Below are positions 21,175-64,000 of a stretch of DNA of 64,000 bases, piece after piece. The notes beneath the pieces are model-generated. The model did no database searches, was not told where the DNA came from, and was given only the letters and a program-made list of their open reading frames with translations. Source of the DNA: Hemiscyllium ocellatum (taxonomy: Eukaryota); assembly GCF_020745735.1 (NCBI RefSeq), contig NW_026867531.1:372001-436000 (forward strand). The letters run 5' to 3'. The translations under genes were made by a program, and so were the position numbers. Every line of letters begins with the position of its first letter. Position 1 is the first letter of the stretch.

Positions 21175-24100
21175 TCCAAATCAGCTGGCTCACTCTCCAT
21201 CTTGATAAAAAAGTTGTATCATGTCATGGTCACTCATCCCCAAGGAGTCTCACGCAGCTAGATTGGCAATGATTCCCTTCTCATTACACAGTACCCAGTC
21301 TAAGATGGCCTGCTCTCTAGTTGGTTCATCCACATATTGGTTAAAAAACCATCCCGCATGTACTCCAGGAATTTTTCCTCTAAGACATTGTGGCTAATTT
21401 GATTTGTCCAATCTAGATGCAGATTAAAATCACCCATGATCACAGATGTCTCCATATCACATGCTTGGCTAATTTCCTGTTGAATACTATTCCGATATGA
21501 CCACTGCAGTCTGGGGGTCTGTGTATGACACCCACTAATGTTTTTTGTCCTTTGGTATTTCACAGCTCCACCCATACAGTCTCCACATTGTCAAAGCTAA
21601 TGTCCTAAAAAGAGATGAACAAAAATACATGACCAGGAATTGAGATATTTCTGCTTAATTATTGATCTTGGATTGATGCTAATTAGCCTTGTCGACTTTC
21701 AATGAATTGCTTCATAAAATCTGGGACCGCCAGCAGAAGGTGATGAGCTAGAACATTTGTGGAATTGCTTTCTCAGTAAATGAACATAGATACATTTTGT
21801 TGAGTTTTTCACAGTAGATGACAGTGCTTCTCCAGCAGGTGGAAGTGACGGCTGATAGTAGATCCTTCAACCAACACCTTCACTCATAAAAAGTTAAGGC
21901 ACACAAAAGGTTGACTGAGGCTACTTAGTTTAACATCATTTATTGAAAAAAATGGTGGAGTCTTTAAAAAAGAATGTTACAGCAGAAAACTGAGAATGGC
22001 TTTACAAAATGGAAATCTTGCCTGATAAATGTATTGGAATTCTTGGAGAAAATGGAGGAAAACATGATTGTAATATGTTTTGATTTTCTGAAGGTGTTTG
22101 ACAGCAGCCATGCATAAGATTACTGAATAAGAAAGGAGCCTTGGCTTTGGAGGGACTGTATTAACGTGGAGAGAGGATTTTTGAAATCCCAATCAGAAAA
22201 GTTTGATGAAGTGTTTTATTTTACAGGATGTCAATCTGTGGAGTACCACATAAATCTGTTCTGGGGGAGAAAAAAAATTTACAAAGTATTTTGATGACTT
22301 AGATGAGGAAAGTGAATATATTGTAGGCAAGTTTGCGAATGACACAAAAATTGGAGCAGAGACAAGTGGTGAGTATGACACAAAAAGAAGTTTGTGGAGC
22401 GATACAGATAGGACGGGAGTGAACAAGGAGCTTTGCACATTAATGTAATGTGGATTAAATAAATGAGAACAGGCATAAACAGTGAACTTGTGCATTTTAA
22501 CAGGCAAGATAGAGATTGAATTCAGAAATCTACAGGAAGTCTGCATCTCCGAACCACAAAAAGTTAGCTTTTAATTTCAACTGTCAATAAAGATGGCAAA
22601 TGTCATGTTGGGGTTTGTTTAAAAACTAATGGAATACTGAGATTAGGAACAGTCAGATAGAGCAGCGAATGTGTAGCTGAGGAGCTGCTGCAGGGGTTAG
22701 GATTCCCATTTTTCAATCATTGGGATCTCTTCAGGGATAGAAATGACCTATATAAGAGGGACCTGAATTGGAAGGGGACCGATATTCTTGTGGGGAAATT
22801 TGCTAGCAGTATGCTGAAGGTTTTAAATTAGTAAGGGGGATGGTGGGAACCAACAAGATAGTGAGAAAAGAGAAATTTTTGAGGTGAGATGTGGTGAGCA
22901 ATTCTAGGGGTCAAGGCAGACAACAGTTTGGCAAGAGCAAGGTAAGACTGCTAAACTGCATTTACTTCGATGCAAGAGATCTGACATGTGAGACAGATGA
23001 ACATAGGGCATAGATGGGAATGTGGGACAAGGATAACATTCCCATTACAGAAATGTGGGTCAGGGATGAACAGGACTGGCAATTTAATGTTCCAGGATAC
23101 AGATGTTATAGAATGTATAGACAGAGGAGCAAGAGAGGAGATGGAGTAGTGTTTTGGTTAGAAAGAACATTACAGCTGGATGTAGAGAGGACATTTCTTG
23201 GAGACTGCCCAGTGAAGTTATATGGATGAAACTTAAAAATAAGAAAGAGGTGATGACCTTGCTGGGATTGTAAAATGGGCCTCCTAATAGTCAGTGGGAA
23301 ATTTACAAGCGATTATGCTATCTGTAAGGAAAGAGGATAATGGTAGGGAATTTTAACTTTCCAAACAGAGTTTGGGGTAGTGTTTAGATCTTGGAATGTG
23401 GAGAAATTGGTTAAGTGTGTACAAGAAAACGTTGTTATTCAATATGTGGATGCACCTACTGGACAGTTCGCAATACTTGACCTTCTGTTGGGAATCAAGG
23501 CAGGACAAGTGACTGAGGTGTCTGTAGGGGCACACTTCAGGGAAAGTGATCATAATTCTATTGGTTTAATAATAATGATGAGAAAGGATAGAATTGATTT
23601 AAAAATGAAAGTTTCAAATTGGAATGTGGCCAGTTTCGAAGGTAGAAGACTTTGAGAAGTTGGTTGGGGGAGATTATTCTCAGGTAAAGGGACGGCTGAC
23701 AAGTGGGAGGCCTTTAAGAATGAGACAATGAGAGTTCAGTGATGGTATGTTTCTGTTTGTGTGAAGGGCAAGGCATGGGAAAAGCTCAATGATGAGGGAA
23801 ATTGCAACTCCTGTCCAGAAAACGAAGGGGGCATTCATCAGATATAGACAGCTGGGATTGAGTGAATCCTGAGAAGGGGATAAGGGCAGTCAGAGTATCC
23901 TTAACCAGGAAATCATGAGGGAAAAAAGGGGGCATGAAATTGCTTTGGCAAATAGAATTAAGGAGAATCCGCAAAGATTCTAAAATTATTTTAAGGTTAA
24001 AAGAATAACTAAGGAGAGAATACAGCCCTTAAAGATCAACATGGCTTTCCATGCATGGAACCACAGGAGATGGCTGAGACACTAAGCAAATATTTTGTAT

Positions 24101-24420: not shown

Positions 24421-25636
24421 TCACACCAGAGATGCTGCCAGACCTTCTGAACATTTCCAGCAGTTTCCGTTTTTGTTTCTGATACACAGCACCCACAGTT
24501 CTTTCAGTTTTTACTTAGTAGTCAGAGAGCATTACGTTTTGGATGGGAGGCCTGTTAGAACATAACAACATCCAAACATTAGAAATACGATCAGGAGTAG
24601 GCCATCTGACCCCATGAGTCTGCTCTTCCTTTAAATAACATCATGGATCATCTTTCAATGGATTAAGATTCCACTTACCCACCCGCTCACTATAACCCTC
24701 CATTCCTTTACTGTTAAAAAAATCTATTTTCACCTTTAAAACATTCAACAGGTTGGCCTCAGCTGCTTCACTAGGCAGGGGATTCCACAGATTCACAACC
24801 CTTTGGGTGAAGATGTTGATCCTCAACTCAGTCCTAAATCTGTTGCCCTTATTTTGATGTTATGCCCCGTCATTCTAATTTCACCCACCAGTGGAAATAG
24901 CCTCCCTGCTTCTGTCTTATCTATTCCATTTATAATTTTACAACCCCCCTCCCACATTCTTCTGAATTCCAATGAGTATAATCCCAGTCTGCTCAATCTC
25001 TCCTCACAAGCCAACCCCCTCATTTCCAGAATCAACGTAATCAACCTCCTCAGCAAACCCCACCCCAGTGCCATCTCATGTAAGGCGATGAAAAGTGTAC
25101 AGAATACTTCAGGCATGGTCACACCAGCGCCCTATACAGCTGCAACAGAAAGTCCTAATTTTAAACTCTATCCACAGCCAATGAAGGACATTATTCCATT
25201 TGTCTTCCTAATTAGCTACTGTACCTGCAAACCATACTGTTTTGTTTCATGCACAAGAACAGCCAAGTCCCCCTGCACAGCAGCATTCTGTTTGTTATTA
25301 TTCCTACCAAAATGGATGACCTCACGTTTATTAACATTGTACTCCATCTGCCAGACTCTTGCCCACTCACTTAACCTATCTATATCCACCTGCACACTTT
25401 GCTCTATCACTCATTTAAGTGCCTTCTGCAAACTACAACACACTACACTTGGATCTCTAACTCGAAGCAATCTACCTGAATTGTAAACAATTGCAGTGCC
25501 AACACTCATCCCTGAGACACACCACTCGCCACTGATTGCCAACCAGAAAAACACCCATTTATCCCCACGTTTTGCATTCTGTTAGTTAACCAGTTTTCTG
25601 TCCATGCTAATGCATTGCTCGTAACACTGTGCATCT

Positions 25637-26475
25637 GGGGTGCACCCATCTCCAGCTCCTCCAAACCCGTGTTAGGGAACTGGAGCTGGAGTTGGATGAA
25701 CTGCGGATCATTCGGGAGGCAGAGGAGGTCATAGATCGGAGCTTTAGGCAAGTAGTTACTCCGAAAGTTCAAGATAGATGGGTGACAGTGAGGGGGAGTG
25801 GGAGGAGGAAGCCAGTGCAGGGACCCCCTGCGGTCATTCCCCTCAAGAACAAGTATACCGTTTTGGATACTTGTGGGGGGGATGACTTACCAGGGGCAAG
25901 CAACGAGGTTCAGGCCTCTGGCACGGAGCCTGGCCCCGTTGCTCAGAAGGGTAGGGTGGAGAAAGGTAGAGCAATAGTTCTTGGGGACTCAATAGTGAGG
26001 GGTACAGACAGACGGTTTTGTGGGGGCGACAGGGACTCACGTTTGGTATGTTGCCTCCCAGGTGCAAGGGTACGTGATGTCGCTGATCGTGTTTTCCGGG
26101 TCCTTAAGGGGGAGGGGGAGCAGCCCCAGATCGTGGTCCACGTTGGCACCAACGATATAGGTAGGAAGAAGGGTGAGGATGTCAGACAGGCTTACAGGGA
26201 GCTAGGTTGGAAGCTCAGAGTTAGAACAAACAGTTGTAGTCTCTGGTTTGTTACCCGTGCCACGTGATAGAGAGTCGAGGAATAGGGAGAGAGAGCAGTT
26301 AAATGCGTGGCTACAGGGATGGTGCAGGAGGGAGGGATTCCGGTTTCTGGACAACTGGGGTCCTTTCTGGGGAAGGTGGGACCTCTATAAAAAGGATGGG
26401 CTACACCTGAACCTGAGGGGCACCAGTGTCCTTGGGGGGAGGTTTGCTAGTGCTCTTTGGGAGGGTTTAAACTAA
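25637..26475 (+). pseudogene. CR1 ORF1 remnant (coiled coil + SGNH esterase-like domain), 5'-truncated and frameshifted
   Basis: ORFs 25629-26267 and 26248-26475 are two frames of one ORF1 (…VRTN|RVVVSGLLPVPR expected). It ends LWEGLN-stop. Confidence 0.85.
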
Positions 26476-29360
26476 CTCCGCGGGGGCATGGGAACCAGGA
26501 CTGTAGCTTTAGGGTACAGGACCTTGAGTGTAGGGAGGTTAGGAATAATGCAGCGATCTCTAAGGAGGGTGCCTGTAACCAGAAAGGTGGATTGAAGTGT
26601 GTATACTTCAATGCCAGAAGTATAAGGAATAAGGTAGGTGAACTTGCAGCGTGGGTTGGTACCTGGGACTTCGATGTTGTGGCCATTACAGAGACGTGGG
26701 TAGAACAGGGACAAGAATGGCTGTTGCACGTTCCAGGGTTCAAATGTTTTAGTAGGATCAGACATGGGGGTAAAAAAGGGGGAGGCGTGGCATTACTTGT
26801 CAAAGACAGTATCACAGCAGTGGAATGGACGATGGAAGAGGACTTGCCATCTGAGGTAGTTTGGGCTGAGGTTAGAAATAGAAAAGGTGAGGTCACCCTG
26901 TTAGGTGTTTTCTACAGGCCTCCTAATAGTCCTAGAGAAGTAGAGGATAATATTGCGAGGATGATTCAGGAAAAGAGTGAAGGTAGCAGGGTGGTTGTTA
27001 TGGGGGACTTTAACTTCCCAGATATTGACTGGGAGAGCTATAGCTCGAGTTCATTAGATGGGTCGGTGTTTGTACAATGTGTGCAGGAGGGTTTCCTGAC
27101 ACAATATGTCGACAGGCCAACAAGAGGGGAGGCTATATTGGATTTGGTTCTAGGTAATGAACCAGGCCAGGTGTTAGACTTGGAGGTAGGTGAGCACTTC
27201 GGGGACAGTGACCACAAATCGGTGACTTTTACTTTAGTGATGGAGAGGGATAATCGTGCGCCGCAGGGCAAGAGCTATAGCTGGGGGCAGGGAAATTATG
27301 ATGCAGTGAGGCATGACTTAGGTTGTGTGGATTGGAAAAACAGGCTTCAAGAGAAGAACACTAATGAGATGTGGGGATTGTTCAAGGAGCAGCTACTGCG
27401 TGTCCTCGATAGGTATGTACCAGTCAGGCATGGTGTAAAGGGCCTTGTGAGGCAGCCGTGGTTTAGTAAGGAATTGGAGTCCCTTGTGAAAGGGAAGAAG
27501 GCGGCATATGTAAAGATGAGGCGTGAAGGTTCAGTAGGGGCGATTGAGAGTTATAAGGTAGCCAGGAAGGAGCTAAAGAGGGAGCTAAGAGAAGCGAGAA
27601 GGGGACATGAAAAGTCTTTAGCTGGTAGGATTAGGGAAAACCCAAAGGCTTTCTATAGGTATGTCAAGAATAAAAGGATGACTAGGGTAGGTATCGGTCC
27701 AGTCAAGGATAGTAGTGGGAAGTTGTGTGTGGAGGCGGAGGAGATTGGAGAGACATTAAATCAGTACTTTTCATCAGTATTCACTCAGGAACAGGACACT
27801 GTTGCTGATGTGAATATGGAATCACAAATAATTAGAATGGATGCCCTGGAAATATGCAGGGAAGAGGTTTTGGGAATATTGGAAAGGATGAATATAGATA
27901 AGTCTCCTGGGCCTGATGGCATTTACCCCAGGATCCTATGGGAAGCTAGGGAGGAGATAGCAGAGCCATTGGCCTGGATTTTTATGTCGTCATTGTCAAC
28001 GGGAATAGTACCAGAGGACTGGAGGATAGCGAATGTGGTCCCCTTGTTCAAGAAAGGGAGTAGGGATAGCCCTAGTAACTATAGGCCAGTGAGTCTGACT
28101 TCAGTGGTGGGCAAAGTCTTAGAGAGAATGGTAAGGGATAAGATTTATGAACATCTGGGTAGGAATAACGTGATCAGGGATAGCCAGCATGGTTTTGTGA
28201 AGGGCAGGTCGTGCCTCACAAACCTTATTGAGTTCTTTGAGAAGGTGACTAAGGAAGTGGATGAGGGTAAAGCAGTAGATGTTGTGTATATGGATTTTAG
28301 TAAGGCGTTCGATAAGGTTCCCCATGGTAGGCTAATGCTAAAACTTCGGAGGTATGGCATTGAGGATACATTAGAGGTTTGGATTAGGAATTGGCTGGCT
28401 GGAAGGAGACAGAGGGTAGTAGTTGATGGATTATGTTCATCTTGGAGCGCAGTTACTAGCGGTGTACCACAAGGATCTGTTTTGGGACCATTGCTTTTTG
28501 TTATCTTTATAAATGATCTAGAGGAAGGACTTGAAAGCTGGGTAAGCAAGTTTGCGGATGACACGAAAGTCGGTGGAGTTGTGGATAGTGAGGAAGGAAG
28601 TGGTAGGTTACAGCGGGATATAGATAAGTTGCAGAGCTGGGCGGAAATGTGGCAAATGGAATTCAATGTAGCTAAGTGCGAAGTCGTTCACTTTGGTAGG
28701 AATAACAAGATGATGGATTACTGGGCTAATGGTAGGCTACTTGGTAGTGTGGATGAGCAGAGGGATCTTGGTGTCTATGTACACAGATCTCTGAAAGTTG
28801 CCACCCAGGTAAATAGTGCTGTGAGGAAGGCATATGGTGTACTGGGCTTTATTGGCAGAGGAATTGAGTTCCGGAGTCCTGAGGTCATGTTGCAGTTGTA
28901 TAAGACTCTGGTGAGGCCTCATCTGGAGTATTGTGTGCAGTTTTGGTCGCCATACTATAGGAAGGATGTGGAAGCTTTAGAACGAGTGCAGAGGAGGTTT
29001 ACCAGGATGTTGCCTGGAATGGTAGGAAAATCTTATGAGGAAAGGCTGAGGCACTTGGGGCTGTTCTCATTGGAGAAGAGAAGGTTTAGGGGAGATCTGA
29101 TAGAAGTGTATAAGATGATTAGGGGTTTAGATAGGGTAGATACTAAGAACCTTTTACCGCTAATGGAGTCAGGTGTTACTAGGGGACATAGCTTTAAATT
29201 AAGGGGTGGTAGGTATAGGACAGATGTTAGGGGTAGATTCTTCACACAGCGGGTTGTGAGTTCATGGAATGCCCTGCCCGTATCAGTGGTGAACTCTCCT
29301 TCTTTATGGTCATTTAAGCGGGCATTGGATAGGCATTTGGAAGTTATTGGGCTAGTATAG
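26457..29360 (+). CDS. CR1 ORF2: apurinic-like endonuclease + reverse transcriptase (967 codons open; no AUG before the endonuclease)
   Basis: APE motifs YFNARS, AITETW, GVFYRPP, MGDFN and SDH. RT motifs NYRPVSLTS, QHGF, DFSKAFDKV, GVPQGSVLGPLLF and FADD. Confidence 0.93.
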   Translation: MGGFKLTPRGHGNQDCSFRVQDLECREVRNNAAISKEGACNQKGGLKCVYFNARSIRNKVGELAAWVGTWDFDVVAITETWVEQGQEWLLHVPGFKCFSRIRHGGKKGGGVALLVKDSITAVEWTMEEDLPSEVVWAEVRNRKGEVTLLGVFYRPPNSPREVEDNIARMIQEKSEGSRVVVMGDFNFPDIDWESYSSSSLDGSVFVQCVQEGFLTQYVDRPTRGEAILDLVLGNEPGQVLDLEVGEHFGDSDHKSVTFTLVMERDNRAPQGKSYSWGQGNYDAVRHDLGCVDWKNRLQEKNTNEMWGLFKEQLLRVLDRYVPVRHGVKGLVRQPWFSKELESLVKGKKAAYVKMRREGSVGAIESYKVARKELKRELREARRGHEKSLAGRIRENPKAFYRYVKNKRMTRVGIGPVKDSSGKLCVEAEEIGETLNQYFSSVFTQEQDTVADVNMESQIIRMDALEICREEVLGILERMNIDKSPGPDGIYPRILWEAREEIAEPLAWIFMSSLSTGIVPEDWRIANVVPLFKKGSRDSPSNYRPVSLTSVVGKVLERMVRDKIYEHLGRNNVIRDSQHGFVKGRSCLTNLIEFFEKVTKEVDEGKAVDVVYMDFSKAFDKVPHGRLMLKLRRYGIEDTLEVWIRNWLAGRRQRVVVDGLCSSWSAVTSGVPQGSVLGPLLFVIFINDLEEGLESWVSKFADDTKVGGVVDSEEGSGRLQRDIDKLQSWAEMWQMEFNVAKCEVVHFGRNNKMMDYWANGRLLGSVDEQRDLGVYVHRSLKVATQVNSAVRKAYGVLGFIGRGIEFRSPEVMLQLYKTLVRPHLEYCVQFWSPYYRKDVEALERVQRRFTRMLPGMVGKSYEERLRHLGLFSLEKRRFRGDLIEVYKMIRGLDRVDTKNLLPLMESGVTRGHSFKLRGGRYRTDVRGRFFTQRVVSSWNALPVSVVNSPSLWSFKRALDRHLEVIGLV

Positions 29361-29599
29361 GTTAGGTAGGACTCGGTCGGCGCAACATCGAGGGCCGAAG
29401 GGCCTGTACTGCGCTGTATCCTTCTATGTTCTATGTTTATCTTATGCAGCAGCCTTTTGTGCAGCACCTTGCTGAATGCCTTTTGGAAATCCAGATACAC
29501 CACGTTCACCAGTTCCCCATGGTCTACCACGCTCATTATGACCTCAAAGAATTCCAGTTAATCAGTTAAACATGACCTGCCTTTCATGAACCCAAGCTT

Positions 29600-61867: not shown

Positions 61868-64000
61868 GAACATAGAACATAGAAAAATACAGCGCAGTAC
61901 AGGCCCTTCGGCCCTCGATGTTGCGCCGACCAAAGTCTACCTAACCTACACTAGCCCAATAACCTCCATATGCTTATCCAATGCCCTCTTAAATGACCAT
62001 AAAGAGGGACAGTTCTCCACTGCTACTGGCAGGGCATTCCATGAACTCACAACCCGCTGAGTAAAGAATCTACCCCTCACATCTGTCCTATACCTACCAC
62101 CCCTTAATTTAAAACTGTCCCCTAGTAACAGCTGACTCCATTAACAGAAAAAGGTTCTCAGTGTCTACCCTATCTAAACCCCTAATCATCTTGTACACCT
62201 CTATAAATCTCCCCTAAACCTTCTTTTCTCCAATAAGAACAGCCCCGAGTGCCTCAGCCTTTCCTCATGATCTTCCTACCATGCCAGGCAACATCCTGGT
62301 AAACCTCCTCTGCACTCGTTCCAATGCCTCCACATCCTTCCTATAGTATGGCGACCAAAACTGCACACAATACTCCAGATGAGGCCGCACCAGAGTCTTA
62401 TACAACTGCAACATGACCTCAGGACTCTGGAACTCAATTCCTCTTCCAATAAAGTCCAGTACACCATATGCCTTCTTCACAACTCTATTTACCTGGGTGG
62501 CAACTTTCAGAGATCTGTGTACATGGACACCAAGATCCCTCTGCTCATCCACACTACCAAGTCGCCTACCATTAGCCCAGTAATCCATCTTCTTGTTACT
62601 CCTACCAAAGTGAATTACTTCACACTTAGCTACATTGAACTCCATTTGCCACCTTTCTGCCCAGCTCTGCAACTTATCTATATCCCGCTGTAACCTGCCA
62701 CATCCTTCTTCGCTGTCCACAACTCCACCGAATTTCGTGTCATCCGCAAACTTGCTCACCCAGCTTTCAAGCCCCTCCTCGAGATCATTTATAAAGATGA
62801 CAAATATCAATGGTCCCAAAACAGATCCTTGTGGAACACCGCTAGTAACTGCACTCCAAAATGAACCTATTCCATCAACTACTACCCTCTGTCTCCTTCC
62901 AGCCAGCCAATTCCTAATCCAAACCTCTAATGCACCCTCAATGCCATACCTCTGTAGTTTTTGCTTTAGCCTACCATGGGATACTTTATTGAATGCCTTG
63001 CTAAAATCCATATACACCACATCTACCGCTTTACCCTCGTCCACCTCCTTAGTCACCTTCTCAAAGAACTCAATAAGATTTGTGAGGCATGACCTTCCCT
63101 TCACGAAACCATGCTGACTATCCTTGATCACATTATTGCTATCCAGATGTTCATAAATCCTATCCCTTACAATTCTCTCTAAGACTTTGCCCACAACAGA
63201 AGTGAGACTCACTGGCCTATAGTTACTCGGGCTATCCCTACTCCCCTTCTTGAACAAGGGGACCACATTCGCTATCCTCCAGTCTTCTGGCACTATTCCC
63301 GTAGACAATGGTGACATAAAAATCAAGGCCAATGGCTCTGCTATCTCCTCCCTAGCTTCCCAGAGGATCCTAGGATAAATGCCATCAGGCCCAGGGGACT
63401 TATCTATTTTCATCCTTTCCAGTATTCCCCAGACTTCTTCCCTACATACCTCAAGGCCATCCATTCTAATCACTTGTGACTCACTATTCACATCAGCAAT
63501 AGTGTCCTGTTCCTGAGTGAATACTGACGAAAAGTATTGATTTAGTGTCTCTCCAATCTCCTCCGCCTCCACGCACAACTTCCCACTACTATCCTTGACT
63601 GGACCGATACCTACCCTAGTCATCCTTTTATTCATGACATACCTATCGAAAGCCTTTGGGTTTTCCCTAATCCTACCAACTAAGGACTTTTCATGTCCCC
63701 TTCTCGCTGCTCTTAGCTCTCTCTTTAGATCCTTCCTGGCTACCTTATAACTCTCAATCGCCCCAACTGAACCTCACGCCTCATCTTTACATAGGCCGCC
63801 TCTTCCCTTTCACAAGGGATTCCAATTCCTTATTAAACCACGGCTCCCTCACAAGAACCTTTACTCCCTGCCTGACTGGTACATACTTATCAAGGACACC
63901 CAATAGCTGTTCCTTGAACAATCTCCACATATCATTTGTGTTCTTCTCTTGAAGCCTATTTTTCCAATCCACGCATCCTAAGTCATGCCTCACCGCATCA
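61868..64000 (-). mobile_element. Young CR1 LINE (same subfamily as 25637-29437), running off the window; RT frame open 62265-63635 but frameshifted at both ends
   Basis: The 456-aa ORF is nearly identical to ORF2 of the 26457 copy. There is a 1-nt loss near 63775 (GTGAGGTT vs GTGAAGGTT) and small deletions near the 3' end. (AGAACAT)n tail at 61868-61885. Confidence 0.93.

Follow-up and report, generated by a model that had tools for sequence, protein, structure and literature searches.

The 64,000-nucleotide (nt) stretch of Hemiscyllium ocellatum DNA analyzed here (assembly GCF_020745735.1, contig NW_026867531.1, positions 372,001 to 436,000 of the forward strand; hereafter the window) contains a young copy of a long interspersed nuclear element (LINE), which we take to be a CR1 element from its anatomy (Table 1). 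Sharks, reptiles, and birds have CR1 among their major LINEs. The element has two open reading frames (ORFs), the first of the esterase type and the second encoding an APE endonuclease and a reverse transcriptase (RT), and an initial annotation of the window proposed that a -1 ribosomal frameshift joins them. Comparison of related copies indicates that the ORF1/ORF2 junction of esterase-type CR1 carries a genuine signal, deeply conserved and built like a -1 frameshift site. Judged from sequence, an ORF1-ORF2 fusion made by programmed -1 frameshifting is probably the best reading of this signal.

Table 1. Features of the young CR1 insertion and of an older CR1 junction (positions are those of the window).
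Feature	Position	Strand	Basis or remark
Young CR1 LINE copy, 5'-truncated, within an older minus-strand CR1	25640..29437	+	Identity and flanks
ORF1 remnant	25640..26475	+	2-nt deletion near 26232 relative to L014
Slippery heptamer T_TTA_AAC in ORF1 phase; final ORF1 codons Leu-Asn	26466..26472	+	
Second in-phase heptamer G_GGT_TTA, lineage-restricted	26463..26469	+	3/21 representatives
ORF1 stop TAA, immediately 3' of the heptamer	26473..26475	+	
G run, candidate stimulator	26482..26486	+	Nucleotide conservation among 21 representatives; top third-position window of ORF2
ORF2 in the -1 frame: 48-codon linker from the heptamer, APE endonuclease, RT	26451..29360	+	969 codons stop-to-stop
3' untranslated region (UTR), terminating in two TTCTATG units	29361..29437	+	
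Old CR1 copy junction TTTAAAT+TAG, then G run	22822..22831	+	Segmental duplication member

The young copy shares 99.4% identity with copy L014 across 2523 nt starting at 25640, and the older element flanks it at 24722-25637 on one side and 29438-29593 on the other. In intact relatives, ORF1 encodes 308 amino acids (aa), with a CxxC zinc-finger-like N-terminus followed by an SGNH/GDSL esterase (PF13472 in the intact copy L004, E=3.5e-14, 54.1 bits). The initial annotation read the ORF1 tail as GAG GGT TTA AAC TAA (26461-26475), placed both T_TTA_AAC and G_GGT_TTA in ORF1 phase, and assigned ORF2 to the -1 frame; the window sequence bears out all three statements. The ORF2 frame is bounded upstream by an in-frame TAG (26448-50), opens five codons before the heptamer, and remains open through it. 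Its two domains exceed the Pfam cut-off (PF03372 at residues 52-255 and PF00078 at residues 535-758). The first in-frame ATG of ORF2 is codon 128, inside the endonuclease as the annotation claimed, and its position is 26832 rather than 26831. This codon lies 47 codons downstream of E81, which aligns with E43 of the human L1 endonuclease, a catalytic residue of that enzyme, so that an ORF2 product started at the first AUG would lack the endonuclease portion carrying E81. An in-frame AUG upstream of the endonuclease, which the annotation had named as evidence against frameshifting, was not found in the focal family. Canonical in-phase heptamers are rare in an intact copy, with two among 306 ORF1 codon positions, both at the ORF1 end, and three among 967 in ORF2. 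Because of its 5' truncation and the 2-nt deletion in ORF1, the focal copy cannot bring ribosomes to the heptamer in the ORF1 frame; it preserves the family signal as a relic.

A search of the host's own genome (3.98 Gb) indicated that the focal CR1 family is very young. With a 331-nt junction query, all 40 of the 40 best scored matches were 100% identical, and a full 308-aa ORF1 was present in 10 of 30 fetched junction copies. A pattern that left 15 junction bases free recovered at least 1629 junction copies; among the matches listed, TTTAAAC was kept in 100/100 and the TAA stop in 98/100. Loss of the heptamer from young copies, named by the annotation as counterevidence, is not seen in these matches. 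Own-genome loci were also fetched independently of the heptamer through an upstream ORF1 motif (6275 matches; 52 examined, 45 distinct), and 38 of the 45 distinct loci have NTTAAAY at the ORF1 end (33 TTTAAAC, 4 TTTAAAT, and 1 ATTAAAC). In a more distant family (L188-L207), found with protein P0049, the heptamer is present in 20/20 fetched loci. The ORF1 of that family is one codon longer (TTC TGA), yet the heptamer and the spacing of the G run are unchanged, which makes this family a natural experiment on where the stop lies.

The closest named homologues of ORF1 come from sharks and rays. Alignment to ORF1 yielded further foreign loci (80 from metagenomes and 17 from a genome collection), among which 28 have both an ORF1 end and an endonuclease motif; the remaining 69 were left uncounted, as the junction was uncovered, the endonuclease motif was absent, or the esterases were unrelated. 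A heptamer match was found in 25 of the 28 (23 TTTAAAC, 1 GTTAAAC, and 1 TTTAAAG), and in these 25 the ORF2 frame is -1 in 18, +1 in 4, and 0 in 3. From their likeness to bird protein P0076, part of the foreign loci appear to be of bird/reptile type. Loci L171-L183 and protein P0006 are animal CR1 in records labelled as bacterial genomes and as a Pseudomonas protein, i.e., host contamination in public assemblies.

Conservation beyond amino-acid constraint was a check proposed in the initial annotation, and across CR1 lineages the synonymous positions of the junction proved to be fixed. For this purpose, 21 representatives were taken from loci with a match resembling the heptamer; their flanks have a median identity of 0.53 and fall into 19 groups at 80%. 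Position X of the heptamer is T in 20/21 of these, in a codon that encodes nine amino acids (background T at third positions, 0.25), the heptamer Leu codon is TTA in 21/21 (background 0.19 of Leu), and GGG is used for Gly at the G run in 20/21 (background 0.32 of Gly). The C-terminal Leu-Asn (L-N) of ORF1 is present in 53 of 87 homologues. The residue before it is never one that lacks an NNU codon (K/E/Q/M/W, 0/53), whereas one place earlier such residues occur in 25/53. For ORF2, an alignment of 13 elements (one of them misaligned at the junction) has its top five-codon window for third-position identity at the junction (0.88; the mean is 0.52, and the RT active site reaches 0.78). The junction sequence is thus conserved beyond protein need. 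Chance, protein constraint on the C-terminal Leu-Asn, or a single ORF broken by an indel can hardly account for it: L-N does belong to the 8 columns that are invariant when ORF1 homologues are aligned, but the synonymous positions are fixed as well, the two-frame layout is common to the at least 1629 copies, and these codon counts largely refute explanations of this kind. Lineages with the two ORFs fused in frame were also sought; just one longer protein among 512 candidates, a single-locus model, reads the junction straight into the ORF2 frame, which is weak evidence either way. This protein, P0088 from a ray, is named hydroxyacid oxidase 2 isoform; it is a CR1 esterase that reads in frame into the endonuclease and is probably a mis-annotated single copy.

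Intact linkers between the heptamer and the endonuclease in 17 lineages are 105-267 nt long and unalignable. From the heptamer onward these linkers are free of stops in the -1 frame, whereas the other frames contain them, and in two lineages (L094 and the L188 family) the -1 frame closes only one codon upstream of the heptamer. The conserved F-K-L of the ORF2 frame would itself require that ribosomes enter this frame at the heptamer. Because the slippery heptamer is shared with distant relatives and, in the focal family, no ORF2 start codon precedes the enzyme core, the RT-bearing protein is likely made by -1 slippage.

Downstream of the heptamer, G occupies nt 11-14 in 21, 21, 20, and 21 of the 21 representatives, respectively, and a run of at least four G begins about 10 nt (9-10) after the heptamer in 20/21. 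There is also a G at nt 8 (window 26480), a third codon position of ORF2, in 19/21, and the conserved signal may extend to it. The G tracts listed in the initial annotation are all present in the window (GGGGG 26482-86, GGG 26490-92, GG 26498-99, and GGG 26512-14). Its suggestion of a downstream stem or G-quadruplex was not supported, as neither a stem nor a three-tier G-quadruplex is conserved and a single G run at a fixed distance is conserved instead. Within 45 nt, four GGG runs occur in 0/21 representatives and four GG runs in 10/21, and these counts, together with the folding scores given below, leave a G-quadruplex or a local stem unsupported as a conserved stimulator. Pairing of the G run with the 3' tail of the element was examined in 11 lineages with full-length copies, using shuffled queries and cognate versus swapped pairs, and was likewise unsupported: p values against shuffled queries were 0.09-0.95, and cognate pairs did no better than swapped ones (p 0.85); the 3' tail window ranked best in 1 of 33 query-element tests. 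No C-rich 4-mer is common to 9 of 13 elements as a conserved C-run partner. The upstream G_GGT_TTA, listed by the annotation as a further in-phase heptamer, was rejected as the main slip site, being confined to the few representatives noted in Table 1.

Nucleotide-level conservation of a G run for which no pairing partner turned up would also suit an RNA or DNA cis element of another function (protein binding, packaging, or internal entry), with ORF2 starting at one of the near-cognate codons present in the linker. Such an element would not, however, fix the phase to both ORFs over linkers of such varied length, nor keep the -1 frame open up to the heptamer, and no near-cognate linker codon is conserved. 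We regard this explanation as quite improbable.

Several observations weigh against frameshifting. No downstream stem was found: for the 21 representatives, mean folding z scores are -0.22, +0.43, and +0.22 at 50, 80, and 120 nt, with z below -2 in 1, 0, and 0 of them, and the fold downstream of the window junction has a z of +1.35. A heptamer match is missing in 3 of the 28 foreign loci (two apparently damaged copies and one doubtful motif match). The counts from the 21 representatives are not independent, since a heptamer-like match was a condition of their choice and they are related, forming 8 groups at 70% flank identity and 4 at 60%. Old own-genome copies are often out of frame, with 12 of 25 in -1, 8 in +1, and 5 in 0. 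In the family worst affected, which has a 149-nt linker, the frame follows the length of the G run, counted by hand from match coordinates; among the matches listed (n=100), the run is 5 nt in 2, 6 nt in 15, 7 nt in 52, 8 nt in 18, and 9 nt in 13, and the length that gives -1 is found in 52/100. A genuine +1 layout in this family was rejected, as the variation in G-run length accounts for the pattern and the modal length gives -1. Finally, a linker Met is present in 7/17 lineages (AUG is absent before the endonuclease core in the other 10/17), and the fifth ORF2 codon is ATG or GTG in 7/21 representatives: an ORF2-frame ATG lies 2 nt past the stop in 4/21, which are of bird/reptile type, and GTG takes its place in 3 more.

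The linker Met and the ATG after the stop keep alive, mainly for bird/reptile-type elements, the main rival to frameshifting, namely, termination at the ORF1 stop and AUG-independent reinitiation on ORF2 as in mammalian L1, with the heptamer, stop, and G run acting as the reinitiation signal. In the available text of the respective papers, the ORF2 AUG of L1 is replaceable by other sense codons (PMC1965478) and SART1 uses stop-start coupling (PMC2699510, PMC3708506). It also fits this explanation that the stop adjoins the heptamer in 20 of the 21 representatives (TAG in 18 and TAA in 2), with that of the last located one codon later. However, reinitiation requires neither X_XXY_YYZ in ORF1 phase ahead of the stop nor continuity of the -1 frame across the heptamer, the fifth ORF2 codon is TGG, TCG, AGG, CCG, GCA, etc., in 14/21 representatives, and the L188-L207 family has shifted its stop while retaining the heptamer and the G run. 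On balance, we consider reinitiation unlikely.

A spliced RNA might instead link an upstream start to ORF2 through an acceptor at the junction. AG directly precedes the G run in many lineages (A in 15/21 representatives there), and GGTAAG motifs occur in full-length 5' UTRs. Yet the focal family has no AG before the G run, a pyrimidine tract is absent, and splicing would make a slippery heptamer unnecessary; this route is very improbable. In assembled contigs of related organisms, none of the 15/21 joints shown is a GT..AG joint and none such crosses the junction, but the RNA status of these contigs is mostly guessed and they cannot show absence, so this was not used as evidence. Contigs of related organisms that span the junction have no alternative letters at the heptamer and, being contigs, add little. 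The 5' UTR of the full-length young copies L004, L007, and L009 (about 330 nt upstream of the ORF1 ATG) has an intron-like arrangement, in which GGTAAG occurs three times as a donor-like motif and a U-rich tract runs up to an AG immediately 5' of this ATG.

In the frameshift reading, ORF1 of esterase-type CR1 ends on an in-phase U_UUA_AAC plus stop, and the AUG-less ORF2 opens one base back. A fraction of ribosomes likely slips -1 at the heptamer, tRNA-Leu and tRNA-Asn presumably moving in tandem, and would yield an ORF1-linker-endonuclease-RT fusion with a predicted length of about 1270 aa in the focal family. Pausing is likely due to the adjoining stop together with the unstructured G run, which lies 10 nt downstream and so close to the entry channel for mRNA; probably a protein or the ribosome itself, and not an RNA stem, recognizes this run. 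Only tentatively do we propose that esterase-type CR1, from sharks to birds and beyond, makes a gag-pol-like fusion at U_UUA_AAC with a new kind of stimulator, consisting of an adjacent stop and an unstructured GGGG held at a fixed 10-nt spacing and recognized in trans, perhaps by ORF1p.

U_UUA_AAC is counted among the shiftiest sites in the literature on frameshifting (PMC5009743, first 300,000 characters, in which CR1 is not mentioned and on which the following statements citing it also rest). The coronavirus/retroviral cassette has the identical heptamer and phase, with a structural gene followed by a polymerase in the -1 frame as in CR1 (PMC5009743). The slip-site variant G_UUA_AAC found in L095 matches G_UU(A) of equine arteritis virus, which is named as an exception among slip sites, and the proximity of a stop is reported to be of importance at an umbravirus site (PMC5009743). 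Unlike that cassette, with its stem-loop 5-9 nt downstream, for which we found no counterpart in the 21 representatives or the window, CR1 has just one G run, at 10 nt, within RNA that is purine-rich and unstructured. The junction is set apart from the canonical cassette because it would work in a gag-pol-like manner without the usual RNA structure. The C-rich motif of arteriviruses likewise has a 10-nt spacing. Frameshifting there is stimulated by nsp1beta and PCBP and is, as proposed for CR1, free of a structured stimulator, but the motif is C-rich where that of CR1 is G-rich (PMC5009743).

Among LINEs, SART1 (UAAUG) and mammalian L1 resemble CR1 in having a bicistronic RNA with ORF2 expressed from the same transcript. 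CR1 differs from their reinitiation in having ORFs that overlap at a slippery heptamer and no stop-start overlap; an AUG overlapping or adjoining the ORF1 stop, as in SART1, is absent in the focal family. The 3' end of the focal element is a short repeat without poly(A), and a repeat tail is a feature of CR1. In the main text of a survey of vertebrate CR1 with esterase ORF1, the elements likewise have an esterase ORF1, an APE and RT ORF2, and no poly(A) tail, poly(A) being confined to Zenon; no recoding signal is described there, and neither 'frameshift' nor 'overlap' occurs (PMC13343379). Dictyostelium TRE5-A and TRE3-A are APE-type LINEs whose ORF2 is stated, in the accessible part of that source, to require a -1 frameshift; their clade and ORF1 are different, and neither a slip site nor a stimulator is specified there (PMC5911963). 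Our literature search, including the available text of PMC5006619, PMC4837594, PMC13405545, and PMC4255032, found no paper proposing frameshifting for CR1; an earlier suggestion may exist in older CR1 papers outside its coverage.

Elsewhere in the window, the initial annotation had noted TTTAAAT+TAG in a much older CR1 copy at 22822, where it is indeed present. The 30 matches fetched for it are segmental duplicates, so that this junction counts as one data point, and it was discarded as broad support. The surrounding block (22660-23100) has at least 40 copies of 95-100% identity, many of them lying on small contigs or close to the end of a contig, and the window seems to be part of a segmental duplication present in many copies. 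At 62115-63999 on the minus strand is another fairly young CR1 ORF2, which has 87% protein identity to the focal copy and runs off the window end.

To our knowledge, the mode of ORF2 translation is settled for only a few LINEs. If CR1 does use frameshifting, its ORF2 protein would be predicted as an esterase-linked fusion, with a built-in tether of ORF2p to ORF1p particles, and the AUG-less ORF2s of CR1 would be explained. The finding would also inform how CR1 retrotransposition assays are designed and provide a -1 site in a host genome with a structure-free signal of 25 nt, open to reporter testing. Should the stimulator be read by ORF1p, RT output would be coupled to the level of ORF1p.

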